Virus record (IMG/VR): IMGVR_UViG_3300045988_155830
Coordinates: 1 to 64,000 of that record
Origin: a virus
Strand: one strand, 5' to 3'
DNA length: 64,000 bases
Shown here: positions 10,549 through 59,011 of the stretch, piece after piece
Layout: each line of letters begins with the position of its first letter
Position numbering within the stretch: position 1 is the stretch's first letter
Made by a program: the position numbers and the translations under genes
The notes under the pieces: model-generated
The model's input: the letters and a program-made list of their open reading frames with translations, nothing else
What the model was told of the DNA's origin: nothing
The model's database searches: none

Positions 10549-10569
10549 TATTGTGGGTTATATGCTGTT

Positions 10570-10649
10570 GCTCGTAACGTTTGCTATGTCAATTCCAACG
10601 GCATTCTTAACTGGAATGATTGTGACTATGCCTATGGTGTGCGTCCGTT
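10570..10649 (+). repeat. DGR template repeat (TR), non-coding
   Basis: Near-identical to VR1 and VR2; rich in AAC/AAT/TAT codons in the VR frame; lies between avd and the RT; the overlapping ORFs 10553..10771 and 10639..10848 are spurious. Confidence 0.8.
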
Positions 10650-10763
10650 CTGGTGGATTAGTGAGGTTTATAGACCACTTTTGTGGTCACAAAGAGTACA
10701 CCACTACATCAAAAGAGCATATAACCCTTCTCATAGAAAGTGGGATAAATACAAAAGATTATT

Positions 10764-12176
10764 ATGGATGATTTTCAGACCCTCGTTGATTTTGAAAATC
10801 TCTATAATTCTTACCGAACTTCTATGCGAGGTAAAGGTAAGAAATTGAGTGCGGCGAAGTTCGATGTTATGGCACTTGAAAACCTTTATGTGATGAAGAA
10901 ACAACTCATTAACCATACATATAGGATTTCACCGTATTCAGAGTTTATTGTAACAGAGCCAAAGAAAAGAATAATCAAATCAGGTTCATTTCGAGATAAG
11001 GTATTACAACATTGCTTATGTGATTATGTATTATTGCCAACTATGAAAGACCGTTTTATAAAGGACAATTATGCAGGTCAAATTGGTAAAGGAACATTAT
11101 TCGGACTAAATCGTTTGTCAGAAAATTTACATAATTTTTATGACAAATATGGTAGTGATGGATATATACTAAAATGTGATATAACCAAATTCTTTTATAG
11201 TATCAACCACGATATTATGAAAGAGAAGATAAGAGAAAATTTTTCGGATGAAGATATTCAATGGATTTGTGATAGTTTTATAGATAGTGTTGATGGAGAT
11301 GGGCTACCTCTTGGAAATCAAAGCAGTCAAGTATTTGCCCTGATATTCCTCAACGGACTTGACCATTATATTGTCGATGAGCTTGGATGTAAATATTATG
11401 GCAGATATATGGATGACTTTTATTTACTATCTAATGATAAAGAGTATCTAAAAGAATGTCTTATTAAAATCAAAGAGTATTTAGCTAACTTAAAATTAAC
11501 GCTTAATAACAAGACTGAAATTGTTTCTATGAGTAAAGGTATTAGATTTCTTGGTTTTCATACATATTTGACCGAGCAAGGTAATGTTATAAGAAAACTA
11601 AATGGAGATAACAAAAGACAAGTTAAAAAGCGTTTAAGAAAGTACACAAAGTTAGTAGTACAAGGAAGAATGAAACGAGAAAAGTTCAATGAGATTTACT
11701 GTTCTTGGCGGAATCACGCATCTCACGGTAACTGTTTCAAGTTGATTTATGGAATGGATTTGTTTGTGGAAAATTTATTTAATGAAGAAAAACCTGAAAT
11801 AAGGGTTATTATTGCCGGTAGTAGAGACTTTAATAACTACGAACTATTGGAAAAGCACCTTAATAAATTCGTCAAAGAACACCCTAATAATAAGATAACT
11901 ATTATAAGCGGTGCTGCTCGTGGTGCAGACCAACTCGGAGAAAGATATGCCAGAGAAAAGTGCATATTATTAAAGAGGTTTTCGGCAAATTGGGAACAAT
12001 TCGGTAAAAGGGCAGGTTATATTAGAAACATTCAAATGCTCGACTATATAGATGCATCTACCTGCGATTCATATGTGTTTGCATTTTGGGATGGAAAGAG
12101 TAAAGGAACAAAACAAATGATTGATAGTGCTAAAAAACGAAATATACCGTATCAAATTGTAGCATTTCAATCTTAA
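10764..12176 (+). CDS. DGR reverse transcriptase with an extra C-terminal SLOG/DprA-like domain
   Basis: YMDD motif; PLGNQSSQVFALIFLNGLD matches the DGR-specific [LI]GxxxSQ motif; C-terminal IISGAARGADQLGE resembles the Rossmann-like SLOG/DprA fold. Confidence 0.85.
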   Translation: MDDFQTLVDFENLYNSYRTSMRGKGKKLSAAKFDVMALENLYVMKKQLINHTYRISPYSEFIVTEPKKRIIKSGSFRDKVLQHCLCDYVLLPTMKDRFIKDNYAGQIGKGTLFGLNRLSENLHNFYDKYGSDGYILKCDITKFFYSINHDIMKEKIRENFSDEDIQWICDSFIDSVDGDGLPLGNQSSQVFALIFLNGLDHYIVDELGCKYYGRYMDDFYLLSNDKEYLKECLIKIKEYLANLKLTLNNKTEIVSMSKGIRFLGFHTYLTEQGNVIRKLNGDNKRQVKKRLRKYTKLVVQGRMKREKFNEIYCSWRNHASHGNCFKLIYGMDLFVENLFNEEKPEIRVIIAGSRDFNNYELLEKHLNKFVKEHPNNKITIISGAARGADQLGERYAREKCILLKRFSANWEQFGKRAGYIRNIQMLDYIDASTCDSYVFAFWDGKSKGTKQMIDSAKKRNIPYQIVAFQS

Positions 12177-12197
12177 AAAATAATTTTACAAAACCTC

Positions 12198-12226
12198 TTG
12201 ACAAACATCTAAATATATGATATAAT
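12198..12226 (+). promoter_or_regulatory. sigma-70-type promoter TTGACA-17-TATAAT
   Basis: TTGACA at 12198-12203 and TATAAT at 12221-12226. Confidence 0.55.
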
Positions 12227-12234
12227 ATAGAAGT

Positions 12235-12630
12235 AATCAAGAGTGCTGACCTAAAAGGTCAGCAATTCTAAATGCATTAAGAAATAATATTGAGCAACGC
12301 AAAAATAAATAAGCAACAATCGAGTAGTGAACAGCAAAGCCTTACGAGGATATGCCACAATGTACGAACCATTCAGAAAGACCGTACAATCACTGAATGG
12401 GTGGCAGGAATTAGAACTAATGGTGTAACGGTAGCATAGCGGCGGTGAGGTCGTGGCTCTGGTTCGACTCCAGAATGTTCGACCAAAAAGAAAGTTCCTT
12501 AAAAGTATCGGCGTTTGAAAAAGCAATGTAAAAATAGAAAGTAATTAAGAGAGATAATTGTTGGTACGTTGTGCGCAGACTAATCCAGCCATTGCTCCCA
12601 TAGGTGCGAGACCTATGGCTCGATTTTTAG
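12235..12630 (+). ncRNA. candidate structured ncRNA (promoter to terminator) containing a tRNA-like 3' element
   Basis: No + strand ORF of 60 aa or more; long-range stems (ccattcag/ctgaatgg, ggcgg/ccgcc); the tRNA-like stretch at 12431-12485 has a D-arm (tggtgtaacggtagca), a T-arm (tctggttcgactccaga), then atgttcg-ACCA. Confidence 0.35.
12598..12628 (+). terminator. rho-independent terminator candidate
   Basis: Hairpin ccatagg-tgcgaga-cctatgg followed by ctcgaTTTTT. Confidence 0.55.
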
Positions 12631-12669
12631 ATATAAAGAGAAATATAAAGAAATAAGAGGGAGTTAAAT

Positions 12670-14578: not shown

Positions 14579-14887
14579 ATAATAGGCAGACAGGGTTTGC
14601 AAATAACAGCCTGGAATTAAATCTGTCGGAAGTCCGAAAAATTTGTATGCCTTTAAATCTATTAAAATGTTGTTTAAAGAGTATCGATGTTTACTTCGGT
14701 ATTCGTTAATATAGGCTTGGGCGGTAGGCATAGCGAAGTACAAGATAAATAGAGCCGCCATATAAACAGAAAGCAATTTAATTTTTTTACATAAAAATTG
14801 TGAGTAACGGCTGATTTGGCAGCCGAAGTGTGAGACATATATATTGTACTCATAAAAAACTATGTAGGTTAGTGGATAATATTTGAG

Positions 14888-15188
14888 GTTTTGGAACTGT
14901 ATTAAATTACATAGTTACCAAACGTATTGGCTATTAGTCAAATCAGTAACACGGTTTTGGAACTGTATTAAATTACATAGTTACCAAACGGTAAGCATAT
15001 GTACCCTGATTTACAACATTGTTTTGGAACTGTATTAAATTACATAGTTACCAAACACACATATAAACATAAATATATGTATGAAAGTTTTGGAACTGTA
15101 TTAAATTACATAGTTACCAAACAACCAGGGGACCTTATAGAATATGTAAAAGGTTTTGGAACTGTATTAAATTATATAGTTACCAAAA
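14888..15188 (+). CRISPR. CRISPR array: 5 x 36-bp repeat GTTTTGGAACTGTATTAAATTACATAGTTACCAAAC with 4 spacers (30-31 bp)
   Basis: Repeats at 14888, 14954, 15021, 15087 and 15153; repeats 1-4 are identical, and the gene-proximal repeat 5 carries 2 substitutions; the repeat is an imperfect palindrome; an AT-rich leader lies upstream. Confidence 0.9.
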
Positions 15189-15206
15189 ATACGAAGGAAA
15201 GTTAAA

Positions 15207-16553
15207 ATGACAAACACATATATAATTGCAAGAAAAATTCAACTGATACCAGTAGGAAAGAAGGAAGAAGTTAATCGAGTTTATACATATATTAAGGATG
15301 GTATAAAATCACAAAATATGGCAATGAACCAGTATATGAGTGCTTTATATACTTCAACTATTATGGAAATGACAAAAGATGATAGAAAAGAATTAAGCAG
15401 ACTATTTGGTAGAATTAGTACAAGCAAATTAGGAAGTGCTTATGATAAAACAATAGAGTTTGCAAAGGGGCTACCTATGGGTGGTGCAATTCAGCAAAAA
15501 GTCAAAAAAGATTTCGATAATGCAATGAAAAAAGGACTTAAATACGGCAAACTATCTTTACCATCATATCGTGATAGCAATCCTCTTTTGGTACACGTTG
15601 ATTATGTTAGACTTCGTTCTACGAATCCACATTTGGATAACGGCTTATATCACAACTATAGTAGCCACGAAGAATTTTTAAATCACTTATATAACGAAAA
15701 ACTTGAATTGTTTATTAAGTTCGCAAACAAAATTACATTCAAACTTGTTTTAGGCAATCCACGAAAATCAGCAGAAATCAGAAGTGTTTTCAAAAATATT
15801 TTTGAGGATTATTATCACATAAAAGGAAGCTCCATTGAACTTGACGGAACGAAAATTATCTTAAATATGTCGATTGAAATTCCGAAAAAGAAAGTTGTTC
15901 TTGACGAAAATGTTGTTGTTGGCGTGGATTTAGGAATCGCAATTCCTGCCGTATGTGCCTTGAATACCAATGACTATGTAAGAAAAAGCATAGGTTCACG
16001 AGATGATTTTTTGAGAGTAAGAACACAGATTAAATCTCAAAGGGACAGGCTTAAAAGGAAGTTGAAATATACAAGGGGCGGTCACGGCAGAGCGAAGAAA
16101 ATGCAGGCTATGGATAGGTTTACTGATTATGAGAAAAATTGGGTACAAACCTACAACCACAAAGTTAGCAAAGATGTCGTTGATTTTGCGTTGAAAAACA
16201 AGGCTAAATATATAAATCTCGAATGTTTAGACGGTTTCAGTAAGGATGATAAAAAGAAAAATTACTTATTAGCGAACTGGTCTTATTACCAGTTGCAACA
16301 ATACATAAAATACAAAGCCGAAAAATATGGAATTGTGGTTAGATTTGTAAATCCCGCTTATACCTCTCAAACCTGTAACTGTTGTGGTAATTTAGAAGAA
16401 GGACAAAGAGTTAAGCAATCAGAATTTATCTGTAAAAATCCAGAGTGTAAAAATTTTGGGAAGAAAATCAATGCTGATTTCAATGCGGCTCGCAACATCT
16501 CAATGTCAACAGACTTTGTTGAGAAAGAAGAAGAAAAAGAAAGAATTACATAA
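15207..16553 (+). CDS. compact type V effector (TnpB/Cas12f-like RuvC nuclease, 448 aa)
   Basis: RuvC-I VGVDLGIAIPAV; RuvC-II YINLECLDG; zinc finger CNCCGN...CKNPECKNFG; RuvC-III INADFNAARNI; ATG 19 nt after the last repeat with RBS GAAGGAAAG; no tnpA nearby. Confidence 0.75.
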   Translation: MTNTYIIARKIQLIPVGKKEEVNRVYTYIKDGIKSQNMAMNQYMSALYTSTIMEMTKDDRKELSRLFGRISTSKLGSAYDKTIEFAKGLPMGGAIQQKVKKDFDNAMKKGLKYGKLSLPSYRDSNPLLVHVDYVRLRSTNPHLDNGLYHNYSSHEEFLNHLYNEKLELFIKFANKITFKLVLGNPRKSAEIRSVFKNIFEDYYHIKGSSIELDGTKIILNMSIEIPKKKVVLDENVVVGVDLGIAIPAVCALNTNDYVRKSIGSRDDFLRVRTQIKSQRDRLKRKLKYTRGGHGRAKKMQAMDRFTDYEKNWVQTYNHKVSKDVVDFALKNKAKYINLECLDGFSKDDKKKNYLLANWSYYQLQQYIKYKAEKYGIVVRFVNPAYTSQTCNCCGNLEEGQRVKQSEFICKNPECKNFGKKINADFNAARNISMSTDFVEKEEEKERIT

Positions 16554-16971: not shown

Positions 16972-19218
16972 ATGAAGAATTTCAAATTAACAGAACTTGA
17001 TAAGATTTTGCTACGCCGTAAGCATTCAGTGATGTTTGAACCTGCTAATATGGCTTATGAGCAGAGCAAGACAGAAAAAGCACTCGTTGTTTCCGGCTTG
17101 AAAAATGTTCAGGCTCTTGGATTTACATTTTCAAAGGAACTTATTGAAAAAGCATTTCATTTTACAAGAGATGAGTTTACTGCTTTCTATGGTTTCCTTA
17201 TCCCTGCACTTAAAGAACTTGTTGGTGCGGATGTTGCATATAATCCAATGTACCCGAACTTTCCACAGCAGGTTGCAGAAGCAAGTGACATTGAGTTATT
17301 CATCAATGCAATCGTTCATTACTGGTCATTTGGCACATTGATTCCCGAATACGAAAAAAATGAGCGTTTACCGCTTATTGATGACAATAAAATGGCTCTT
17401 TTATCAGTAGGAAGTCACGATGATTTGATGACTATTTTCACAAATCTTGTTGAGAGCAAGACATCAATCTCGGAGCAGGACAAAGAGGACATTGAAACTA
17501 TCATTCTTGCTTGTCCTGATTATACTACATATTTTTCTGATACAATCCCTCTTAAAGAGAATGTTGCGTTCGTTGGAAAACTCATTATTGAAAAAGCACC
17601 AATCAAAAGCGCCGATTCAATAAGCAAATACTTCAAGACCGCAACGGATGTTTTACGACTTGTAACAGCACTTTCCGATGGCGACATTAGCCTTGCTTCA
17701 AAAACCAAGTACCGAAATCTTCGTAGGGTTGAACGCCGTATGATTATGGACTTGCTTACTGGCTGTGGTAACATAACAGAGGATTTATTCCGTTATCAGT
17801 ATGAATGGATTAGAGTTGCAGAAATTCTTCATCCGTTTGAATATAAAAAATCAAAGTATAGCAATGTCAACGCTGCATTCAATACTTTAAGAAACGAGAA
17901 AAAGCCTCTTATGTTTGCAGGAAAGGTTCAGGCAGCAATTACCGCAAAAGATATGCGTGAAGCTGCCACCTTGTTAAAAGCAAGACCCGGAGAGTTCGCA
18001 AGGAAACTTGACAAACTTATTCGTGATGCAGATAATCCGAATTATATTGTCAACTGTTTTAAGGAAGTTGCAACAGAAATCTCAACTCCTGTACTCCTTC
18101 AGGTAAGACAGCATTTCATAGGAAGAATGGAGAATGATAATCAGCCTGTAAGAGTATTCTTTCCTAAAGGAAACCTTGCAAAAGCTATGGTTATCAGAAA
18201 TGAACTTCCCAAAATCAATAGAAATGTATGTAAAAATGTTGCAAGGATTTGCCGTGAGGCTTTAATTGAACAGTACAAGGAAAAAGATTTTCTCGGAAAG
18301 GTTTATATTGATGAGGATTTCAAAAATTACCTTGTTCCGTTTAGTCAGAGAAGTGCAAGTAAGGCTGTTAAGACCATTGTTCGTGGTAGTAAGTTGCCTA
18401 TTAAGAAAGATGCTACGACTGTTCGTGGTTTTATTTGGTGGACTAATACTGATAACACGAGAAATGGCTGGGGTGAAGATAGGGTTGATATTGACCTTTC
18501 TGCAACCATTTATGATGAAAATTGGCAGTATGTTGACCGTGTATCATACACACAACTTCGCTCTGCAAAATATAGAGCATATCATTCGGGCGATATTACC
18601 AATGGCGGAAATGTTAATGGTGATGGCGTAGCAGAGTTCATTGATGTAGAAATTGATGCAGTTGCTAAAAACGCTGGTAGATACATTGCATTTCAGGTTT
18701 ATAGTTTTACACGACAGCATTTTTCTACGCTTCCTAATTGCCGTTTTGGATGGATGGAAAGAGAAGATGTAAACAGCGGTGAAATATTTGAGCCGAAAAC
18801 GGTTGGAATGAAAATTGACTTAACTGCTGACAGCACTGTTGCTATACCCGTTATATTCGATTGCGTTGAGCGTAAATTCATTTGGTGTGATATGAACCTT
18901 CAGAATGCAAGTTCGAGGTTTTATGGAAATAATCTTGAAAGTAATTTACACGGTGTAACCGCAACTTGCTATGGCTTAACACATCTTAATAAGGCAAATA
19001 TTTATGACCTCATAATGATGAACGCTGTTGCAAGAGGTAGTATTGTCACAGATAGAAATGAAGCAGACATCATTTTCAGTAATGATACAACAGTACCTTA
19101 TGAAATTGTAAATGAGCTTGACGAGGTTACGGGTACTACAAAACCTGTTATAAAGGAGAAGCCAGAAGTTCCGATTATCACGGCTTTCGATACCGATGAA
19201 TTATTTGCCTTGTTATAA
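16972..19218 (+). CDS. large protein (748 aa) with a TerD-like domain
   Basis: Region DIDLSATIYDENWQYVDRVSYTQLRS...YHSGDITNGGNVNGDGVAEFIDVEIDAV..RYIAFQVYSF matches the TerD consensus (HSGDn.tG.g.GDdE.i.vdL...rivf.v.iy); the N-terminal roughly 450 aa are unassigned. Confidence 0.5.
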   Translation: MKNFKLTELDKILLRRKHSVMFEPANMAYEQSKTEKALVVSGLKNVQALGFTFSKELIEKAFHFTRDEFTAFYGFLIPALKELVGADVAYNPMYPNFPQQVAEASDIELFINAIVHYWSFGTLIPEYEKNERLPLIDDNKMALLSVGSHDDLMTIFTNLVESKTSISEQDKEDIETIILACPDYTTYFSDTIPLKENVAFVGKLIIEKAPIKSADSISKYFKTATDVLRLVTALSDGDISLASKTKYRNLRRVERRMIMDLLTGCGNITEDLFRYQYEWIRVAEILHPFEYKKSKYSNVNAAFNTLRNEKKPLMFAGKVQAAITAKDMREAATLLKARPGEFARKLDKLIRDADNPNYIVNCFKEVATEISTPVLLQVRQHFIGRMENDNQPVRVFFPKGNLAKAMVIRNELPKINRNVCKNVARICREALIEQYKEKDFLGKVYIDEDFKNYLVPFSQRSASKAVKTIVRGSKLPIKKDATTVRGFIWWTNTDNTRNGWGEDRVDIDLSATIYDENWQYVDRVSYTQLRSAKYRAYHSGDITNGGNVNGDGVAEFIDVEIDAVAKNAGRYIAFQVYSFTRQHFSTLPNCRFGWMEREDVNSGEIFEPKTVGMKIDLTADSTVAIPVIFDCVERKFIWCDMNLQNASSRFYGNNLESNLHGVTATCYGLTHLNKANIYDLIMMNAVARGSIVTDRNEADIIFSNDTTVPYEIVNELDEVTGTTKPVIKEKPEVPIITAFDTDELFALL

Positions 19219-19292
19219 TTTATGAGGTGAATATTATAGTTAAGGTATGGAACAAACGGAAGGCTATATTAGTGAAATAAAATGAAATTATT

Positions 19293-19995
19293 GTGGCTGT
19301 GGACTTTCTTCCTTCTAAAAGAAAATAATTTCGATGGTTTAGCCATCTACATAATGATGATAAGATAGAAAGTCCGATTTCCACTATTCATAATTTGTGG
19401 CTGTAATGCTCATCCTTCTACATAATATCAAGAACTGCAAATTCTTCTAAAAAGAGTATTAAATTCCCACACCTCTTTCTAAATATTATGTGGCTATTGT
19501 TTTTTCATCCTTCTATGCCAATAGGCACTTGATTTGGGATTAAGATTTTAGAGAAACAAATTTCCACAATACAAAATATGCGGCTGACCAACATCATCCT
19601 TCTATATATCAGGGAACTATGTGTCGTGGGTTCGACTCCCACCATTCCATCTTCGATGGGATGTCGCACAGTTGGTAGTGCAATAGTATTATTAGATGTT
19701 AAAATTACCGCATCAAATAAATTTCAAATAATTAGAAATAATATTGAGAAAAACACTTGACAAATAGTAAAATGTGTGCTATAATATCTAATGTAAGTTA
19801 AATAAACATTCGGCTGTTGAGGTTCATCCTTCTACCTATTAGGAATAGACTTTTAATCTATATATTATAAGAACCTCAAATTTCTGAATATAAGCTGGCT
19901 GAAAGGTTTCATCCTTCTTCAAATACATAATACCAAGCTGCTAATCGTGGGTTCGATTCCCACCTATCTACATTGCTGGTAGTCGCCAAGAGGTA
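19293..19995 (+). repeat. array of about 90-110-nt degenerate tRNA-like units, each beginning with the conserved motif GGCTG-N8-(T)CATCCTTCTA (copies B-G)
   Basis: Motif copies at 19295-19317, 19399-19420, 19492-19515, 19582-19604, 19812-19834 and 19897-19919; units E and G contain a perfect T-arm (gtgggttcgactcccac / gtgggttcgattcccac) followed by a D-arm (gcacagttggtagtgc / gccaagaggtaaggc); unit F contains a Lys-type anticodon arm (atagacttttaatctat); none folds as a complete tRNA. Confidence 0.55.
19757..19785 (+). promoter_or_regulatory. sigma-70-type promoter TTGACA-17-TATAAT inside the tRNA-like array, preceded by the conserved intergenic motif
   Basis: TTGACA at 19757-19762 and TATAAT at 19780-19785. 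Confidence 0.55.
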
Positions 19996-20226
19996 AGGCA
20001 GCAGCCCTAAAATCAAAGAGACCGAAATTTCCAGCATCAAGAAACATTATTGAGCAAAACAAAATACGATAACTACAAAACCTAATCAGAATTTTTCACC
20101 TCTTTCTCTCCTTTCTATGTTTTTGCGTGTTTCATAAGATAAATTAAGAGTATTTTTTTTGTCTGATTAAAACCTGTTTAACAGGGGGCAAAGTTAGATA
20201 GATAAAGGTCTTTGCCATATACATAT

Positions 20227-20519: not shown

Positions 20520-20810
20520 TTGTATCTTAATATTGGCTATTCATCTGCCAAACCAGTTAAGCCATCGAAAATAATTGGTATTAAAGAAAGAATCAAAGAA
20601 CTTGGTTTAGATGAGCATAAATTAAGTAATCGTAATTATTATAAGAAAAGTAAATATATAAACAAACATCTAAATTTTGTTTTAGACCACATTGACGGAA
20701 ACGCTTCAAACAATCGAGAAAATAATCTCCGATTGATATGTCCAAATTGTGATTCTCAATTAGACACATATAAATCTAAAAATAAAAATTCAGCAAGACA
20801 ATATAGATGA
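20520..20810 (+). CDS. HNH homing-endonuclease-like protein (short)
   Basis: HIDGNASNNRENNLRLICPNCD matches the HNH motif; located in the tRNA cluster. Confidence 0.5.
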   Translation: MYLNIGYSSAKPVKPSKIIGIKERIKELGLDEHKLSNRNYYKKSKYINKHLNFVLDHIDGNASNNRENNLRLICPNCDSQLDTYKSKNKNSARQYR

Positions 20811-20816
20811 TAATAT

Positions 20817-20906
20817 GGCGAGTTGACAGAGTATGGCTTATTGTGCTTAACTTGAAATTAAGCGGCGGTAACACGCCCGTGGGTTCAAATCCTACACTCG
20901 CCGCCA
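20817..20906 (+). tRNA. tRNA-Ser (anticodon TGA), type II, CCA encoded
   Basis: Acceptor ggcgagt/actcgcc; anticodon stem cttaa/ttaag with loop cttgaaa; long variable arm; T-arm gtgggttcaaatcctac. Confidence 0.75.
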
Positions 20907-21520
20907 ACATCCTGTTGGCGTAACAGGTTGGTTGAGAACCGACTCTCACGACCAATACCAAAAGTATAAAAGCCTCTTAACAATGCTCACTATTATGAAA
21001 AAGTTGGTTATTAAAATATTGCTGTCGCTGCGAATATAGGTGGGGTAAACATACTTTCATATGCAAATCGCAAAATCCTCATTAGCGAACTCCGTGGAAG
21101 CTGCTCCTATGGCTGATGGCTTCTGACAGCAACTATATAAATGAGAAGAAAGAAACTCTCTGTTTAGGGTGAAATGATATATCTCTAATCGGTGCTGACA
21201 CCTATCAGACATTTATATGGCGTTACGCCCTCTACCGATACGATAACTCGGGGTAACACAATGGTGAGGGAATTATAAATACGAGAGTGCAGGAATAACG
21301 AGTAGTCATTCAAAGGAATTGCAGTAAATGATTGTGCATTTATAACGAACTGCAAGAGTGAATGTATGAACAATGAATGACGGTGACTAAATATCAGTTA
21401 GTAATGGCAATATGAGGCGAGGATGTGGTGCGGCTATGCAAACCAACTCACAGTGTTTCGGCATAGAGTAGTTGAACTGTTGCTAACTGGTATTGAAATC
21501 ACTTTAGAAAGGAGAGAACA
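20907..21520 (+). ncRNA. candidate large structured ncRNA (about 600 nt, ORF-free) directly 3' of tRNA-Ser
   Basis: No + strand ORF; GC content visibly higher than the flanks; numerous local hairpins; this placement (after tRNAs in a phage) is typical of ROOL/GOLLD-class RNAs, but that is not verified. Confidence 0.35.
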
Positions 21521-21522
21521 AA

Positions 21523-21792
21523 ATGTTTTATAATGTAATAATCGGAAGTCCGATTGTAGAACCTAAAACATTGATTGCTCTTGATGATATAGATTGGGAA
21601 ACTAATGAAAAAGAAAAGACATTATTTACCGATACAAGATTTCTTCCGGCAATTATGAAAGAAGCCGGAATAGTGAAATCAATCGGAGAAGTTAGAAAGA
21701 ATAAGCCCGAACTTGTTTTTACTCTTAATGAACTTGATTGTTTATGGATTAAATGGGGCAAGAAGTTTCTCTATATTGTAGTCGGTAATTGA
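21523..21792 (+). CDS. hypothetical protein (89 aa)
   Basis: GGAGAG RBS upstream of the ATG. Confidence 0.45.
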   Translation: MFYNVIIGSPIVEPKTLIALDDIDWETNEKEKTLFTDTRFLPAIMKEAGIVKSIGEVRKNKPELVFTLNELDCLWIKWGKKFLYIVVGN

Positions 21793-22705: not shown

Positions 22706-23515
22706 ATGAAATATGATGCATTTGATAAAAGAATGAAAAAGTATGAATTTGTGTCGAGACACTATTTGACAACTCGTACTCCTGTTATTATCCGAATTGA
22801 CGGTAAAACGTTTCATACATTCACAAGAGGTTTTCAAAGACCTTTCGATGATGTACTTTCTAAAACTATGCAGGAGACAATGAAATATCTTTGTGAAAAT
22901 ATTCAAGGTTGTGTTCTTGGATATACACAATCAGATGAGATTACTCTTGTCCTTGTTGATTACAAGAATATAGATACTTCTGCTTGGTTTGATTACAATA
23001 TCCAAAAGTGTGCGAGTGTTGCAGCAAGTATGGCAACAATGGCTTTTAATAAATTTTTCAATAACAGAGCCAATAATTATATAAATTCAGTTTTAGAACT
23101 CCAAGATACAGATATTCCATCCGAATTAGAATATATTAAGATACTTAAAAGAGCAATAGATAAAGGTGCAATGTTTGATGCTCGTGTATTCAATATTCCA
23201 AAAGATGAGGCTTGCAATAATTTACTTTGGAGACAGAATGATGCCACAAGGAACTCAATTCAGATGGTTGGCAGAGCATCTTTCTCTCACAAGCAATTAA
23301 ATAAAAAATCCACAAGCAATATTCAGGATATGCTTATGCTTGAAAAAGGCGTAAACTGGAATGATTATCCTACAAAATATAAGAGAGGTAGCTGTTGTAT
23401 TCGTAAGACTGATGAGACAACAGGTAGAAGTAAATGGATTATTGATAATGAAATTCCTATCTTTAAGGGAGATGGTCGAAAGTATGTCAATGATTTAATA
23501 TATGTGGGCGAGTAA
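22706..23515 (+). CDS. Thg1-like protein (tRNA-His guanylyltransferase family 3'-5' polymerase)
   Basis: VIIRIDGKTFHTFT and VLGYTQSDEITLVLV match the Thg1/TLP signatures (RIDGRxFHxF; GQSDEYSF); RBS GAGGATG upstream. Confidence 0.75.
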   Translation: MKYDAFDKRMKKYEFVSRHYLTTRTPVIIRIDGKTFHTFTRGFQRPFDDVLSKTMQETMKYLCENIQGCVLGYTQSDEITLVLVDYKNIDTSAWFDYNIQKCASVAASMATMAFNKFFNNRANNYINSVLELQDTDIPSELEYIKILKRAIDKGAMFDARVFNIPKDEACNNLLWRQNDATRNSIQMVGRASFSHKQLNKKSTSNIQDMLMLEKGVNWNDYPTKYKRGSCCIRKTDETTGRSKWIIDNEIPIFKGDGRKYVNDLIYVGE

Positions 23516-23738: not shown

Positions 23739-24626
23739 TTGATTATTGGTGGGAGTTATTTTAATGAGAAGATTATTCATAAAATGAATATTTATACTAC
23801 ATATTTTGCAAATATTCGCCATTTGCCAAAAAGTATTATACCAGTTTCAATAGCTGGAAAACCGCCCGAAAAATGGGATGGAATTGAGTATAAGAAATTA
23901 GCACCTAAATGGAGTTTCTTTTCCGAGTGGAAAAAAACTAAAAATAACGATTATTATATTGAACATTTTTATGATGAAGTATTAAGTAGTCTTACTCCAC
24001 AAAATGCAATTGATGAACTAAATAAAATTAGTTCTAATAATGATAACAAAGATATTGCCCTTGTGTGTTACGAAATTCCAAGAGATTTTTGCCACAGACA
24101 TATTGTTTCCGGTTGGTTAAATCGTAATGGGGGATATTGTGTAAAAGAATATATTGATATGAATTCTATAAAAGATACAGATGACGGAATTACACATATC
24201 AATATTTATAGTAAAGGCAAAACTGATTTAGGAAAAATGTTAAGTAACTTTTATAAGTTTCCTATACATACAGATGACGGTGATTTTCTATCAGTTGAGG
24301 GATATTGGTATTGGTTATCTATTGATGATTCGGTGAGAGAAAGAGAAGAATTACGTTATTTATATGGATTTAATGCTAAAAGCAGAGGTAAAGAAATCTT
24401 AAAAGAAACAAATGATGGTAAAAGTAGTAGATTTGAGCCTGACTTTGAAAATAAGATTCTAAAAGCTATTTGGTATAAATTAAGAAGAAATGCAAATCTA
24501 TTAACACCTGAATATCGGAGATTACCAATAGTTCATTATTATTGTTATGGTGGAAAGGTTGTTGATGTTACAAGTAAATATCAATGGTTAATAGACGGAA
24601 TTACTAAAATGAGAGATTACTTATAA
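23739..24626 (+). CDS. hypothetical protein (295 aa)
   Basis: Long ORF; start uncertain. Confidence 0.45.
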   Translation: MIIGGSYFNEKIIHKMNIYTTYFANIRHLPKSIIPVSIAGKPPEKWDGIEYKKLAPKWSFFSEWKKTKNNDYYIEHFYDEVLSSLTPQNAIDELNKISSNNDNKDIALVCYEIPRDFCHRHIVSGWLNRNGGYCVKEYIDMNSIKDTDDGITHINIYSKGKTDLGKMLSNFYKFPIHTDDGDFLSVEGYWYWLSIDDSVREREELRYLYGFNAKSRGKEILKETNDGKSSRFEPDFENKILKAIWYKLRRNANLLTPEYRRLPIVHYYCYGGKVVDVTSKYQWLIDGITKMRDYL

Positions 24627-55448: not shown

Positions 55449-55655
55449 ATGTTTAAATGTAAAAATTGTGGAACTGAAATGGAGAGAGTTTATTCTTTTG
55501 AAAATGAGAATGAAAGTTATCAGCAGATGAAGTGTCCTAACTGTGGCGGTGCTACAAAAAAGAGACCTATCGTGTATGACGATAACGGCAATCTCGTAAC
55601 CAATTTCAAGAAGAACAATAAAAAGAAAAAGCAGAGAAAGGCTAAAGAAGAATGA
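55449..55655 (+). CDS. hypothetical zinc-ribbon protein
   Basis: CKNCG...CPNCGG. Confidence 0.45.
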   Translation: MFKCKNCGTEMERVYSFENENESYQQMKCPNCGGATKKRPIVYDDNGNLVTNFKKNNKKKKQRKAKEE

Positions 55656-58600
55656 TTATCAATGATAAGAGAGCATTAGCCTATATCGTAACCATTGATG
55701 AAATTAGACCTATTCCGAATTACGATAGGGTTGAACACGCTCGTACAAATGGATGGTGGTGTGTAACTCGTCTTAATGAATTAAAAGTTGGAGACAAAGC
55801 GGTTTATTTTGAAGTCGATAGCAAAGTGCCGGCAGATGATGAGAGATTTAGTTTCCTTGAGGCTAAACACTACAAGATTAAAACTCAAAAAATGTGTGGA
55901 GTTTTTTCACAAGGTTTGCTAATGCCAGTTACATTATTTCCTGAATTAGCGGATATGGAAGTCGGAACAGATGTTACTGATATTCTTAAAGTTACATATT
56001 CTGTCATTGAAGATAATACAAGAAAATCCAAAAATGGAGACCCTGATGCAAAATATAAGTCTATGGCACAGCGACATCAAAAGATTTTTAAGAAACCTAT
56101 TGTGCGAAAGATTATGAAACACAAGCTCGGCAGAAAGATTATGTTCCTTTTCTTTGGAAAAAAGAAAGATAAACCATTATCATTTCCGACACATTTCCCA
56201 TTTGTTCATAAGACAGATGAAGAAAGGTGTTTAATTGGCGATACAAAAGTCCAAACAAACAATGGTGTTTTAAAAATTGCCGACATAGTAAATAAAGAGT
56301 TGCCTGTTGAGGTTTTATCTTATAATGAGAAAACAAAAACAGTTGAATATAAACCGATTATTTCTTATCAAAAATTTGCGAAGAAAGAAGATGAAGATTT
56401 AATCGAAATAAAATATCCTTACAGATTTGGAAATCAAAAAACAAATACTATTCGTTGCACCCCAGACCATAAATTTTATAATGGTTCAACTTATGTACGA
56501 GCTGATGAAATTCATCAAGGTGATAAAATTTTTATTCACCATCATTGTTATGATGACTATGTTATTCAAGTTGTTTTTGGAATGCTACTTGGAGATTCTT
56601 CAATTTATTATGATAAGAGAAGTGGTAGTAATAATATCCGCATCCAAACCTCACAAGGCGAAAAACAATTAGATTACTTAAAAATGAAGCAATCGTTGTT
56701 TGGAGAACAATTCTTTAAGATTTCCAAATGTAAAAGCGGATATTGTGACAATGTGGTTTATAAAGGGTGTCTATCGGCTGATTACAATATTTCTAAAGCT
56801 GTATTAGAAAATTGTTTTATTAACAATAAGAAAACAATTACACCTACAATGTTAAAATATATTACGCCACTTTCTCTCGCAATTTGGTATATGGATGATG
56901 GCAACCTTAAACATAAATATGATAGTTGTAGTCCATCAATTATTATTTCTACTTGTGGTTTTTCAAAAAATGAAAATGAATTGCTAATTGATATGTTGAG
57001 AAATAATTTTGGAATTGAGTGCAACTTGCGTAGAGAGAAAAATAAATATTGGAGCATTTATATTACAACTGAAGGAACAAAGAAGTTCCTAAAACTCATT
57101 ACTCAATATATCCCACCGTGTATGAGGTATAAAACATTACAAGAATATGAGAATGATTATTTTTCTATCCAAGATTTAAGATATAAAAAGCAGGAACGAT
57201 TGATGCCCATACCAGTAATATCAATTAAAAAATATAAGGGTATTAGACGATATAAAACTGTTTTTGATATTGAAGTTAAAGATAATCATAATTTCTTTGC
57301 GAACAATATATTAACTCATAATTGTGAGAATATGCCGTGGGTTCTTGGATATGAAAGACCGTTAATCGTGACTGAAAAACTTGATGGTTGTCTTGATAGA
57401 GATGTTAGCGTTGTTACAGATGCTGGTTCGTTTAAGATTTCAGAAATTGTAAACAAAAAACTTCCTGTGAATGTTCTCACTTATAATTCTAATTTGAATA
57501 TTTGCGAATACAAACCGATTGTAGATTATCACAAATGGGAAAGAGTATCGGATATGTATGACATAGTAGTATCTCAACAAGGTTATAAGTGTGAAAACAA
57601 ACCGAAACATATTCGCTGTACAAGTGAACACAGCTTTTATGTTGGTAACAATCAATACATAAAAGCTAAAGACTTAAAAAATACTGATATAATTTATCAT
57701 AGATATGAAATTATTGATACATTAGTAAAAGAAATCTTATTGGGAATTTTGCTTGGAGATGCCTCATTATCTTCTAAATACGGAGTAATAAATGGTGGCG
57801 TTGATTTTAGTCATTCTATTAAACAGAAAGATTATTTTAATGAGATAAAAAGATTGTTGGGTCAAAATATTTCAATAGATACAACAAAATCGGGATATAA
57901 TTCTGAAATGTTAAGAGGTCATTTTTATACTAATTCAGAATTTAAGGAGTTGTCAAATAAAATATGTGTAAGAAATCACAAAAAATATGTAACACAAGAA
58001 TGGGCAAATGAATTAACTCCCATATCTCTTGCATTTTGGTATATGGACGATGGAACTATCTCAAATGCTGATTCAAAGTTGTCAAGACCTACAATTAGTA
58101 TTGCTACAAATGGTTTTAGTTATGAGGAATGCGAAAACTTAAAAAGAGCATTATCAACAAAGTTTAATATTGAATCAGACATAAAAATGGGAGAATCATA
58201 TAAAGGGAATACACTCTATATGAATACAATGAATACGGCTAAATTTGCTTCCTTGATTGCTCCATATATTTGCGATGGTATGAAGTACAAGTTGCCAAAA
58301 TCAATGAGAAATATTAAGTATTGTCTCGGAGATTATATAGCGAGCAATGGTAGCTCAATTACTCCCACGAAAATTATTTCTGTAAGAAAAATTGACAATT
58401 ATAACCGCAAATATGTTTTTGATTTAACAGTCAAAGATAACCATAACTATTTTGCAAACGGTATTTTAACACACAATACCTCATCTACATATATTCTTGA
58501 AAGAAAAGGCAAGAAAAAATTCGAGTTTTATGTTCTATCAAGAAATGTTCGTCAAAAGACACCTGACCAAAAGTGCTACCACGATAAGAATATTTACTGG

Positions 58601-59011
58601 GATATGGCTATTAAAAACAATATTGAGCAACGCCTAAAAGAATATCTTATTGCAAATCCAGACTTGAAATATGTCTGCATACAAGGGGAGTCTGTTGGTA
58701 GTGTTCAAGGAAATCCACTTAAATTAAACGAAGATGAACTCTATGTATTTAACTTCATTCGTTCCGATGTGGGTAGATTATCATCTATTGACGGAAAAGA
58801 AATTATTGAGAGTTGGGGTATGAAATTTGTCCCAATATTGGAAACAGAATATTATGTACCAACTGATATGGAAACATTCAAAGAGTATGCAACTGCAAAA
58901 TCTGTTGTAAATCCGAATGTATTGCGTGAGGGCATTGTGCTTCGTGACCCGACCAATGATTTTAGCTTTAAGAATGTTTCCCGTGAGTATTTATTAAAAC
59001 ACGGAGGTTAA
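55652..59011 (+). CDS. RNA/DNA-ligase-family nucleotidyltransferase (KxDG) interrupted by two LAGLIDADG inteins; the extein is about 391 aa
   Basis: Extein motifs TEKLDG|TSST (motif I), IQGESVG (motif IV) and FSFK (motif V); two insertions with the intein hallmarks Cys1 and ..THN followed by C or T. Confidence 0.65.
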   Translation: MIINDKRALAYIVTIDEIRPIPNYDRVEHARTNGWWCVTRLNELKVGDKAVYFEVDSKVPADDERFSFLEAKHYKIKTQKMCGVFSQGLLMPVTLFPELADMEVGTDVTDILKVTYSVIEDNTRKSKNGDPDAKYKSMAQRHQKIFKKPIVRKIMKHKLGRKIMFLFFGKKKDKPLSFPTHFPFVHKTDEERCLIGDTKVQTNNGVLKIADIVNKELPVEVLSYNEKTKTVEYKPIISYQKFAKKEDEDLIEIKYPYRFGNQKTNTIRCTPDHKFYNGSTYVRADEIHQGDKIFIHHHCYDDYVIQVVFGMLLGDSSIYYDKRSGSNNIRIQTSQGEKQLDYLKMKQSLFGEQFFKISKCKSGYCDNVVYKGCLSADYNISKAVLENCFINNKKTITPTMLKYITPLSLAIWYMDDGNLKHKYDSCSPSIIISTCGFSKNENELLIDMLRNNFGIECNLRREKNKYWSIYITTEGTKKFLKLITQYIPPCMRYKTLQEYENDYFSIQDLRYKKQERLMPIPVISIKKYKGIRRYKTVFDIEVKDNHNFFANNILTHNCENMPWVLGYERPLIVTEKLDGCLDRDVSVVTDAGSFKISEIVNKKLPVNVLTYNSNLNICEYKPIVDYHKWERVSDMYDIVVSQQGYKCENKPKHIRCTSEHSFYVGNNQYIKAKDLKNTDIIYHRYEIIDTLVKEILLGILLGDASLSSKYGVINGGVDFSHSIKQKDYFNEIKRLLGQNISIDTTKSGYNSEMLRGHFYTNSEFKELSNKICVRNHKKYVTQEWANELTPISLAFWYMDDGTISNADSKLSRPTISIATNGFSYEECENLKRALSTKFNIESDIKMGESYKGNTLYMNTMNTAKFASLIAPYICDGMKYKLPKSMRNIKYCLGDYIASNGSSITPTKIISVRKIDNYNRKYVFDLTVKDNHNYFANGILTHNTSSTYILERKGKKKFEFYVLSRNVRQKTPDQKCYHDKNIYWDMAIKNNIEQRLKEYLIANPDLKYVCIQGESVGSVQGNPLKLNEDELYVFNFIRSDVGRLSSIDGKEIIESWGMKFVPILETEYYVPTDMETFKEYATAKSVVNPNVLREGIVLRDPTNDFSFKNVSREYLLKHGG
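56228..57322 (+). mobile_element. intein 1 (365 aa, LAGLIDADG homing-endonuclease type)
   Basis: Begins CLIGDT; internal LLGDSSIYY and AIWYMDDGN; ends NILTHN with C+1 (CENMP). Confidence 0.75.
57389..58477 (+). mobile_element. intein 2 (363 aa, LAGLIDADG type), inserted directly after the KxDG glycine
   Basis: Begins CLDRDV; internal LLGDASL and AFWYMDDGT; ends GILTHN with T+1. Confidence 0.75.

Follow-up and report, generated by a model that had tools for sequence, protein, structure and literature searches.

We show that the analysed phage DNA encodes, at about 21012-21505 (+ strand), a member of an uncatalogued family of large structured non-coding RNAs of about 470-510 nt. The DNA stretch, referred to as the window, comprises positions 1 to 64,000 of IMG/VR record IMGVR_UViG_3300045988_155830. 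The RNA forms a new class within a known kind, namely the large ornate phage RNAs that travel with tRNA genes. A first-pass annotation of the window had proposed such a large ornate RNA beside the tRNA genes. Its interpretation as non-coding RNA is supported by a conserved multi-helix fold, by compensatory changes and by the setting in a tRNA array, but the class is new. Overall, we consider it likely that this is a new RNA family which resides in tRNA arrays, would be released from a polycistronic transcript and would act in trans.

Coding content, base composition and folding energy

The gene-free region extends from the end of tRNA-Ser(UGA) at 20906 to the ATG of an 89-aa gene (p89) at 21523. 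It had been described as free of + strand reading frames, and this is confirmed: on the + strand, 20907-21522 holds only ORFs of 35 and 36 aa (on the - strand there are ORFs of 32, 51 and 62 aa). Stop codons of all three types occur in all six frames (8-15 per frame), so that recoding of a stop codon does not rescue any frame. Six-frame translations of the region gave no Pfam match and a single weak match to PHROGs (E 0.11). A recoded or frameshifted gene was rejected in view of the mixed stops, the lack of a Pfam match and the PHROGs match at only E 0.11; the first-pass annotation had named a frameshifted protein gene across the region as a finding that would refute its proposal.

The reported enrichment in G+C is likewise reproduced: the G+C content of the region is 0.40, whereas the window as a whole has 0.333 and its coding sequence 0.334. 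This is the highest value among the window's twelve gene-free stretches of at least 300 nt (for the tRNAs the value is 0.51). The claim that the region is dense in hairpins is the one part that does not hold. The stem quoted as an example (cctgttggcgtaacagg) is present at 20911-20927, but thermodynamics do not support the general statement: compared with shuffled sequences the minimum free energy is no better on the + strand (z = +0.37), and z = -1.83 on the - strand. Evidence for more structure than expected by chance comes from comparison with related sequences and not from folding energy. The proposed coordinates are essentially right, though two separable units lie within them, a leader and the RNA itself. 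The main features are:

20817-20906 (+): tRNA-Ser(UGA) with encoded CCA (ARAGORN, Rfam tRNA)
20907-21011 (+): leader of 105 nt, present only in the window's clade
~21012-21505 (+): structured RNA, supported by covariation, starting a few nt before helix H1
21523-21792 (+): p89, the 89-aa gene, with a ribosome-binding site (AGGAGAG) at 21510-21516

Relatives and range of the family

Homologues of p89 led to two near-identical IMG/VR contigs (L001 and L002), in which the region is 98-99% identical. Together with L125 these are the closest relatives, and all three are without the 42 nt that correspond to 21163-21204 of the window, part of a conserved sub-domain. The element is absent from three contigs with relatives of p89 at 49-76% (L003, L004 and L005). 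L003 has an A/T-rich repeat region at the place where the element would be.

Loci at intermediate distance were obtained by a protein search followed by look-ups of the exact contigs. Three of these (L126, L129 and L133) share 80-83% identity with the window in the non-coding region; the corresponding values are 71-74% for the end of the adjacent 748-aa gene and 73-79% for the upstream non-coding sequence. A 19-mer at 21101-21119 (CTGCTCCTATGGCTGATGG) is invariant in the intermediate loci and matches 13 IMG/VR and 36 metagenome stretches. Sixteen of the metagenome matches were rejected as unrelated coding sequences (ten of which are copies of one conserved gene, read here as elongation factor Ts); the rest are true homologues. 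An 18-mer taken from the body of the RNA (GGCGTTACGCCCTCTACC) matches only the two near-identical contigs.

With nhmmer the element was found in 43 loci, representing 25 distinct sequences. Four diverged members (L183, L185, L187 and L188) were added by an independent gapped pattern based on another conserved block, whose matches L182, L184 and L186 proved to be false positives. A longer pattern that includes the 19-mer yielded a single contig among species-representative genomes (L189), which is binned as a Clostridia MAG. Altogether the homologues comprise sequences with 80-97% identity as well as far more diverged ones, with a fold of about 480-500 nt. The family is seen only on large uncultivated phage contigs, the long ones measuring 92 to 402 kb, and on one 15.9-kb Clostridia-MAG contig.

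A covariance model of the 131-position core domain (R1) finds 26 loci at 97-140 bits on contigs from IMG/VR, JGI, ENA and Logan, and gives no match in 859 kb of unrelated phage DNA. Its single match in the window (21012-21141, 140.4 bits, E 1.4e-36) is obtained by construction, as the window sequence is in the seed; the independent support consists of the 25 other loci. A second copy of the RNA, either in the window or in loci with abiF-type hairpins (see below), was found neither by nhmmer nor by the covariance model.

Covariation and anatomy of the RNA

Covariation was assessed on a full-length alignment of 20 sequences. RNAalifold proposes 76 pairs, and compensatory double changes are seen in 43. 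Standard pairs occupy 96.8% of the alignment cells, against 37-48% when the partners are slid by 1-3 columns. Similarly, both partners change in 44 pairs (9-14 when slid) and the covariation score is 0.51 (against 0.05-0.12); these observed values were reached by none of 500 shuffles. The refined structure, in which a stem found by eye (Hx) and two hairpins inside helix H5 complement the RNAalifold result, has 90 proposed pairs (51 compensatory) with 95% of cells paired. For the core domain the paired fraction is 97.5-99.6%, against 28-52% when slid. Helices H2, H3 and H4 contain invariant G-U pairs; since read from the opposite strand these would become A-C mismatches, the RNA is located on the + strand. 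The elements of the fold are:

21012-21141 (+): core domain with H1-H4 and Hx, from R1 and covariation
21019-21026 with 21125-21132 (+): H1, the closing helix; 8 of 8 pairs covary, 100% paired
21039-21045 with 21077-21083 (+): H2, interlocked with Hx
21068-21071 with 21085-21088 (+): Hx, pseudoknot stem of 4 bp (UCGC/GCGA), which covaries and crosses H2 (H-type)
21096-21102 with 21118-21124 (+): H3, from covariation
21103-21105 with 21111-21113 (+): H4; helix H3/H4 presents a 19-nt internal-loop/pentaloop element
21101-21119 (+): the 19-mer CUGCUCCUAUGGCUGAUGG, enclosed by H3 and H4
21133-21220 (+): H5 domain, from covariation; H5 itself pairs 21133-21143 with 21210-21220
21221-21505 (+): 3' domains with H6, H8, H13 and less certain helices in 21306-21380
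21221-21227 with 21418-21425 (+): H6, long-range, with one covarying pair only
21235-21238 with 21248-21251 (+): H8, 100% paired, two covarying pairs
21435-21443 with 21455-21465 (+): H13, 100% paired, five covarying pairs
~21495-21503 (+): conserved 3' end GAAAUCAYU, from sequence conservation

Conservation of the RNA is highest in the 5' core of about 115 nt, which has the consensus GCGAAUAUAGGYGG ... CUGCUCCUAUGGCUGAWGG. One predicted pseudoknot, between H2 and Hx, is supported by the versions of Hx that occur in other lineages (UCCC/GGGA, UCCA/UGGA, GUUC/GAAC, UGUC/GACA and UUGC/GCAA). In H3, at least eight different compensated versions of three variable pairs surround the near-invariant 19-mer. 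The latter is identical in every member that was recovered with it and differs by one base in the four members from the independent pattern; as most members were found via the 19-mer, its invariance is partly due to ascertainment. The loop of H4 (CCUAU) is perfectly complementary to AUAGG between H1 and H2. Both are invariant, and a tertiary contact between them is possible.

Further downstream, 8 of the 11 pairs of H5 are compensatory and 96.8% of its cells are paired. It encloses a hairpin with a conserved 13-nt loop (UGAAAYGAUAUAU) and a hairpin GGUG-CUGA-CACC; these inner hairpins are 69% and 94% paired. Helices H9-H12 reach 88-98%. Alignment between clades is poor in the middle of the 3' half (~21270-21400), whose helices are only 88-90% paired and which is the least certain part of the fold model. 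The 3' boundary was taken from lineages with a tRNA whose first nucleotide lies 465-512 nt downstream of the H1 start.

Several lineages have shorter forms: L167, L169 and L145 contain the core alone, and L188 and L187 the core with shorter tails (in L188 just 317 nt separate the start of H1 from the next tRNA). Given these truncated forms, the 5' core may be the functional unit and the rest accessory.

Search against known RNA families and databases

At gathering scores, Rfam 15 finds only ten tRNAs in the whole window. A permissive scan of 20700-21700 (E <= 10) returned no ROOL, GOLLD, intron, HEARO or raiA, and on nine loci with family members the RNA was matched at E <= 1 by no Rfam 15 model, ROOL and GOLLD included. 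Nor does 20907-21522 match the Rfam 15 models of group I/II introns, HEARO, raiA, OLE, tmRNA or RNase P. The sub-threshold lines within this region concern a partial abiF RNA, a snoRNA and a miRNA, all with E 0.14 or worse, and a weak match to sX4 (E 0.033, 21.9 bits against 70) extends into it from tRNA-Ser. The earlier suggestion of an RNA of the ROOL/GOLLD kind, which left the class open, is correct with respect to a large RNA near tRNAs; the Rfam models of these two classes do not match it. The first-pass annotation had also named the combined absence of an Rfam hit and of covariation as an argument against its proposal; the Rfam match is indeed absent, and covariation is strong.

None of 50,697 GenBank phage records contains the RNA family, and the 614-nt region is unmatched there in a DNA search. 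Searches of GenBank phages with the 130-nt core (E <= 10) and with a diverged member (E <= 1) returned only chance 19-23-mers inside genes. Both conserved motifs of the RNA are absent from the literature searched. A survey of structured RNAs in IMG/VR reports candidates of 29-151 nt only, and these may include fragments of the family.

Setting in tRNA arrays and proposed processing

All lineages have the RNA within an array of tRNA genes on a large phage contig. Its commonest upstream neighbour is tRNA-Ser(UGA), which besides the window occupies this position in L001/L125, L126, L129, L133, L165, L189, L146/L135, L167 and L185. In seven lineages 5-14 nt separate the end of the upstream tRNA from H1, and in ten loci (from lineages without p89) the first nucleotide of the downstream tRNA lies 465-512 nt beyond the H1 start. 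From these tRNA boundaries on both sides it follows that the RNA is one unit with a length of about 470-510 nt. Most lineages have tRNA genes of the same strand no more than a few nt away from the RNA, so it is most likely transcribed as part of a tRNA polycistron.

Release of the 5' end would be brought about by 3' processing of the upstream tRNA, and release of the 3' end by RNase P cleavage at the tRNA that follows. For the window clade, the 3' side would instead run on into the p89 mRNA. Transcription, RNA ends and stability are deduced from gene layout only. Once freed, the RNA would act in trans as a stable RNA or an RNA-protein particle. Its most likely role would be to keep tRNAs and translation working against a host defence that targets RNA, with p89, where present, as a possible co-actor.

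Neighbouring genes

For p89 an S4-like RNA-binding fold is predicted (AlphaFold2, pLDDT 95), and in the window clade the protein is a possible partner of the RNA. The gene lies directly 3' of the RNA in the window clade, in L165, L189 and L146/L135, and in the truncated L167. Within the flanking DNA examined it is absent from L142-type loci, L136, L160, L185, L183, L187 and L188, and the 748-aa gene is absent from several lineages within the same limits. As both genes are lacking in several lineages, there is no universal protein partner. Identification of the 748-aa protein as Ro60/TROVE was considered and rejected: it has no Pfam or PDB sequence match, and its NCBIfam match is a RING-domain family.

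The genes around the RNA are all on the + strand. A perfect match to a sigma-70-type promoter is found at 19757-19785, followed by tRNA-Arg, tRNA-Leu, an HNH gene, tRNA-Ser, the leader, the RNA and p89. Sub-threshold Y-RNA-like (YrlA) modules are located upstream at 19618-19685 and 19939-20003, and occur in relatives as well. Thg1-like and DUF488-N3a proteins are encoded nearby, and relatives have PTH2 and metallophosphatase genes. The neighbourhood further contains an intein-containing RNA-ligase-like gene (named from its best GenBank phage match), a PolyA_pol-type nucleotidyltransferase, Tad4 and a PemK-like toxin. It is rich in genes for RNA and tRNA maintenance and for counter-defence, which points to a putative function of the RNA in translation maintenance or counter-defence.

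The leader and its abiF-like hairpin

The 105-nt leader would have been added between tRNA-Ser and the RNA in the window's lineage. It consists of:

20907-20962 (+): leader part 1, two hairpins followed by UCUCACGACCAAUACCA
20911-20927 (+): hairpin CCUGUU-GGCGU-AACAGG, recognised in the sequence
~20928-20942 (+): T-arm-like hairpin, recognised in the same way
20965-20997 (+): abiF-like hairpin, partial match to Rfam abiF (RF03085)

The stems of the first part are kept in L126, L129 and L133 with wobble or loop changes. This part is absent in L146/L135, L185 and L160, where H1 follows the upstream tRNA after 9-11 nt. Judged by eye, its hairpins together with UCUCACG-A-CCA resemble a tRNA 3' half; 20907-20962 has no match to the tRNA model (RF00005) and no ARAGORN call, and inside the region as a whole the tRNA model finds nothing at E <= 10.

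The abiF-like hairpin has an 18-nt core at 20972-20989 (GCCUCUUAACAAUGCUCA) within a weak outer stem of five A/U base pairs (20965-20969 with 20993-20997, including a U-G). In L001 a U-to-C change turns the closing U-G into C-G. The match to RF03085 at 20971-20989 covers model positions 8-26 of 37 and scores 23.6 bits against a gathering score of 37, because the outer stem is short and A/U-rich. In the relatives the abiF-like hairpins are not detected by Rfam at E <= 1. The core is nonetheless identical (18/18) to that of bona fide abiF-motif hairpins, and the chance expectation of finding it in the window is 0.06 even when 3 mismatches are allowed.

The exact 18-mer occurs in at least 119 IMG/VR stretches. 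Among the matches listed, 10 of the 14 tested hairpins with the exact core score 45-58 bits as abiF RNA, and the core typically lies within a stem of varying sequence, with at least five contiguous pairs in 61 of 103 loci. Among these same listed matches an Abi_2 protein is encoded by just one of the 53 first downstream ORFs on viral contigs, and for 27% of the hairpins a tRNA is no more than 300 nt away. The window hairpin is not followed by an abiF gene either, the next gene being the S4-like p89, and Abi_2 is not among the 25 listed of the 62 Pfam families matched in the window.

AbiF is a HEPN RNase of a type III toxin-antitoxin defence that is related to the Cas13 ancestor (PMC12373285, PMC12737573, PMC13064643). 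AbiF RNA acts as the antitoxin, which binds and blocks the toxin (PMC12373285, PMC12737573). We read the leader hairpin as a candidate mimic of this antitoxin. It is present as a single copy, unlike the two abiF motifs in RCd22 of C. difficile (PMC12373285).

Alternative explanations

Two alternatives retain the structure and differ in what it does. The RNA might be a long structured 5' leader that regulates p89 in cis, like a riboswitch or T-box. In the window clade its end and the p89 ribosome-binding site are about 5 nt apart, with no terminator-like site in between, and RNA and p89 are neighbours in the window/L001/L002/L125, L126, L129, L133, L165, L189, L146/L135 and L167. This is unlikely given that in L142-type loci, L136, L160, L185, L187 and L188 a tRNA follows directly and no p89 homologue is found, that a tRNA-Arg separates RNA and p89 in L126, and that conservation is highest in the 5' core, a long way from the ribosome-binding site. 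It might also be argued that the locus is a modular array, with the 115-nt core RNA as functional unit and one or more separate small RNAs behind it. The core has a closing helix of its own (H1) and persists by itself in L167, L169 and L145 (with shorter tails in L188 and L187), and H6, the long-range helix that joins the downstream 5' and 3' parts, has one covarying pair. We consider this unlikely: the length between the tRNAs is tightly held (465-512 nt in ten loci of several lineages), H5 begins right after H1 without a spacer, H5, H8 and H13 covary across clades, and no internal tRNA or promoter-like break is seen.

The remaining alternatives concern the identity of the region. A highly diverged ROOL or GOLLD that escapes the Rfam models would share the size class, the phage setting and the adjacency to tRNAs (PMC5737381, PMC12286853). 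It is very unlikely, as there is no match at E <= 10 with permissive filters in the 1 kb around the window copy and none at E <= 1 on nine family loci. An RNA component of a mobile or defence element (a TnpB omega RNA, a reverse-transcriptase RNA or an intron) could be suspected with a TnpB-like gene (15207-16553), a reverse transcriptase-SLOG fusion (10764-12176) and an HNH gene (20520-20810) all within 11 kb. None of these genes is adjacent, however; the family loci contain no TnpB homologue, the reverse transcriptase occurs in few loci only and at 5-9 kb, the HNH gene is missing in L001/L002 where the RNA is kept, and no intron or HEARO match exists, which makes this reading highly improbable. 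Least credible of all is decayed sequence, be it a pseudogene (for example of a lost abiF gene) or a collection of tRNA pseudogenes. In its favour, hairpins of the abiF type are normally followed by an abiF gene, the region is situated in a tRNA cluster and G+C-enriched like tRNA genes, and the leader resembles a tRNA 3' half. Against this, no frame has a Pfam match or anything better than E 0.11 in PHROGs, no tRNA model matches inside at E <= 10, and the region is better conserved than the neighbouring 748-aa gene. Moreover, substitutions in the helices are compensatory, which neutral decay does not produce; the covariation effectively refutes this alternative.

Comparison with known systems and significance

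GOLLD is a large ornate RNA that is found in phages and prophages, often beside tRNAs (PMC5737381, PMC12286853). ROOL has a length of about 0.5-0.6 kb and a multi-junction, pseudoknotted structure, often lies near tRNA genes or in phage DNA, and is of unknown function (PMC5737381); it forms RNA-only multimeric assemblies (PMC12286853). The new RNA is similar to ROOL (RF03087) in being a large structured RNA near tRNAs in phage DNA, a resemblance in kind and not homology: the ROOL model does not match and the conserved core of the new RNA is different. GOLLD (RF01998) is larger, with about 800 nt, and its model does not match the new RNA either.

To our knowledge, very few classes of bacterial and phage RNAs are both large and complex in fold (rRNA, RNase P, group I/II introns, tmRNA, OLE, GOLLD, ROOL, raiA and HEARO). 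Each known class of large RNA has opened new biochemistry or structural biology, and cages built of RNA alone have recently been found for ROOL and GOLLD. The new class offers a compact near-invariant core, a supported pseudoknot, boundaries set by tRNAs, natural truncations and a candidate protein partner, and with these features it can be taken straight to cryo-EM, processing assays and genetics. The constant position of the RNA among tRNA and RNA-repair genes of large phages may help to explain why GOLLD and ROOL travel with tRNAs.

The leader hairpin is comparable to abiF RNA (RF03085) in its identical 18-nt core and in the outer stem that encloses the core, but it scores below threshold and has no abiF gene, and the likeness is limited to the leader. 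A phage antitoxin copy without its toxin is exemplified by pseudo-ToxI of phage phiTE, which counters a host toxin-antitoxin system. Phage-borne antitoxin copies of this type, among them DarG-like proteins, neutralise abortive infection by host toxin-antitoxin systems (PMC11825919, PMC11481870). By analogy, pseudo-ToxI and the DarG-like orphans are our proposed model for the orphan abiF hairpin. A hairpin at phage sk1's cos site inhibits AbiF but does not resemble AbiF RNA (PMC13064643). Tentatively, and as a doubtful extension of the above, the RNA could form a particle (with an S4-like partner in some lineages) that guards or restores tRNAs or ribosomes or serves as a decoy for RNA-targeting immunity; the orphan abiF hairpin, fused to it in one transcript, would then act as anti-AbiF, and orphan abiF hairpins in general would constitute a widespread, undescribed RNA counter-defence of phages. 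Phage abiF hairpins almost never lie beside a toxin gene, which provides a testable hypothesis for RNA-based evasion of AbiF.

Orphan abiF-type hairpins on viral contigs

The core 18-mer of the abiF antitoxin RNA, located in the window at 20972-20989, recurs exactly on at least 119 diverse viral contigs (IMG/VR, L006-L124). The abiF gene itself is nearly always missing beside it: among the matches listed, Abi_2 (the AbiF toxin) was found in 1 of the 53 downstream ORFs. Among these same matches a tRNA lies at most 300 nt away for 27% of the hairpins, and a T-run follows the hairpin in 43%. Orphan hairpins of this type may form a widespread RNA-based anti-AbiF decoy; no prior report of such a viral decoy was found in the literature.

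Variation of the large RNA and of the adjacent tRNA-Ser

The closest relatives of the window (L001, L002 and L125) have lost 42 nt of the large RNA (21163-21204), which removes the conserved UGAAAYGAUAUAU loop hairpin together with the GGUG-CUGA-CACC hairpin. Both are retained in far more distant members of the family, and the form seen in the three relatives is a natural deletion variant.

A further difference concerns the tRNA-Ser upstream.

20520-20810, HNH endonuclease ORF between tRNA-Leu and tRNA-Ser (20817-20906)

This ORF is missing in L001 and L002, which are 97% identical to the window. Between the window and these relatives the anticodon stem of the neighbouring tRNA-Ser has changed with full compensation (CUUAA/UUAAG against CCUGU/ACAGG), and its variable arm differs as well. 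Presence of the HNH gene along with an altered tRNA-Ser looks like gene conversion accompanying homing.

Several other phages with the large RNA carry tRNAs with a CUA anticodon (tRNA-Pyl according to ARAGORN: L183 4043-4192, L188 1695-1767, and L142). Judged from their anticodon these would be amber suppressors, which suggests TAG recoding in those phages. In one member contig (L136) the large RNA is preceded, at a distance of about 1 kb, by a RAGATH-27 RNA (RF03100; 769-854, 83 bits, over the gathering score).

A Y-RNA-like stretch and its neighbour

16972-19218, 748-aa protein
19219-20226, second stretch free of genes, 1 kb long, bounded by the 748-aa gene and tRNA-Arg

The gene-free stretch resembles an array of Y-RNA-like genes: it holds two sub-threshold YrlA (RF02553) matches (19618-19685, 32.5 bits, and 19939-20003). 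A GGCTG-N8-10-TCATCCTTCTA motif occurs in it about six times, and the sequence at 19757-19785 matches a TTGACA-17-TATAAT promoter perfectly. YrlA-like matches were found again in L133 and L189, two of the other loci compared.

A TROVE/Ro60 identity of the adjoining 748-aa protein was not borne out by its sequence. It matches NCBIfam NF041916 (the MXAN_6230/SCO0854 RING-domain family) with 405 bits, under the family cut-off, and also phrog_33734.

Other genes and gene-free stretches of the window

10764-12176, reverse transcriptase fused to a YAcAr/SLOG domain
15207-16553, TnpB/Cas12f-like gene, ending 16 nt before tRNA-His
22706-23515, Thg1-like
23739-24626, DUF488-N3a
55652-59011, 1119-aa ORF; best GenBank phage match (28% identity) annotated as intein-containing RNA ligase

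The RNA-ligase-like ORF, intein-splicing and LAGLIDADG domains (Pfam), the Thg1-like and DUF488-N3a genes and a PolyA_pol-type nucleotidyltransferase together suggest a large RNA-repair kit. The Pfam sweep, covering 74 window ORFs, also yielded a Tad4 anti-Thoeris protein, a PemK/MazF-like toxin and three DNA methylases, besides SAM synthetase, adenylosuccinate synthetase and ADP-ribosylglycohydrolase; the window is rich in counter-defence and metabolic genes.

The reverse transcriptase is flanked by gene-free, G+C-enriched stretches (10549-10763, 0.39; 12177-12669, 0.37), which are candidate RNAs associated with it. Upstream of the TnpB/Cas12f-like gene lies an A/T-rich, gene-free stretch of 628 nt (14579-15206), part of which is similar to a repeat-bearing spacer of another contig (L003, 5435-5554).
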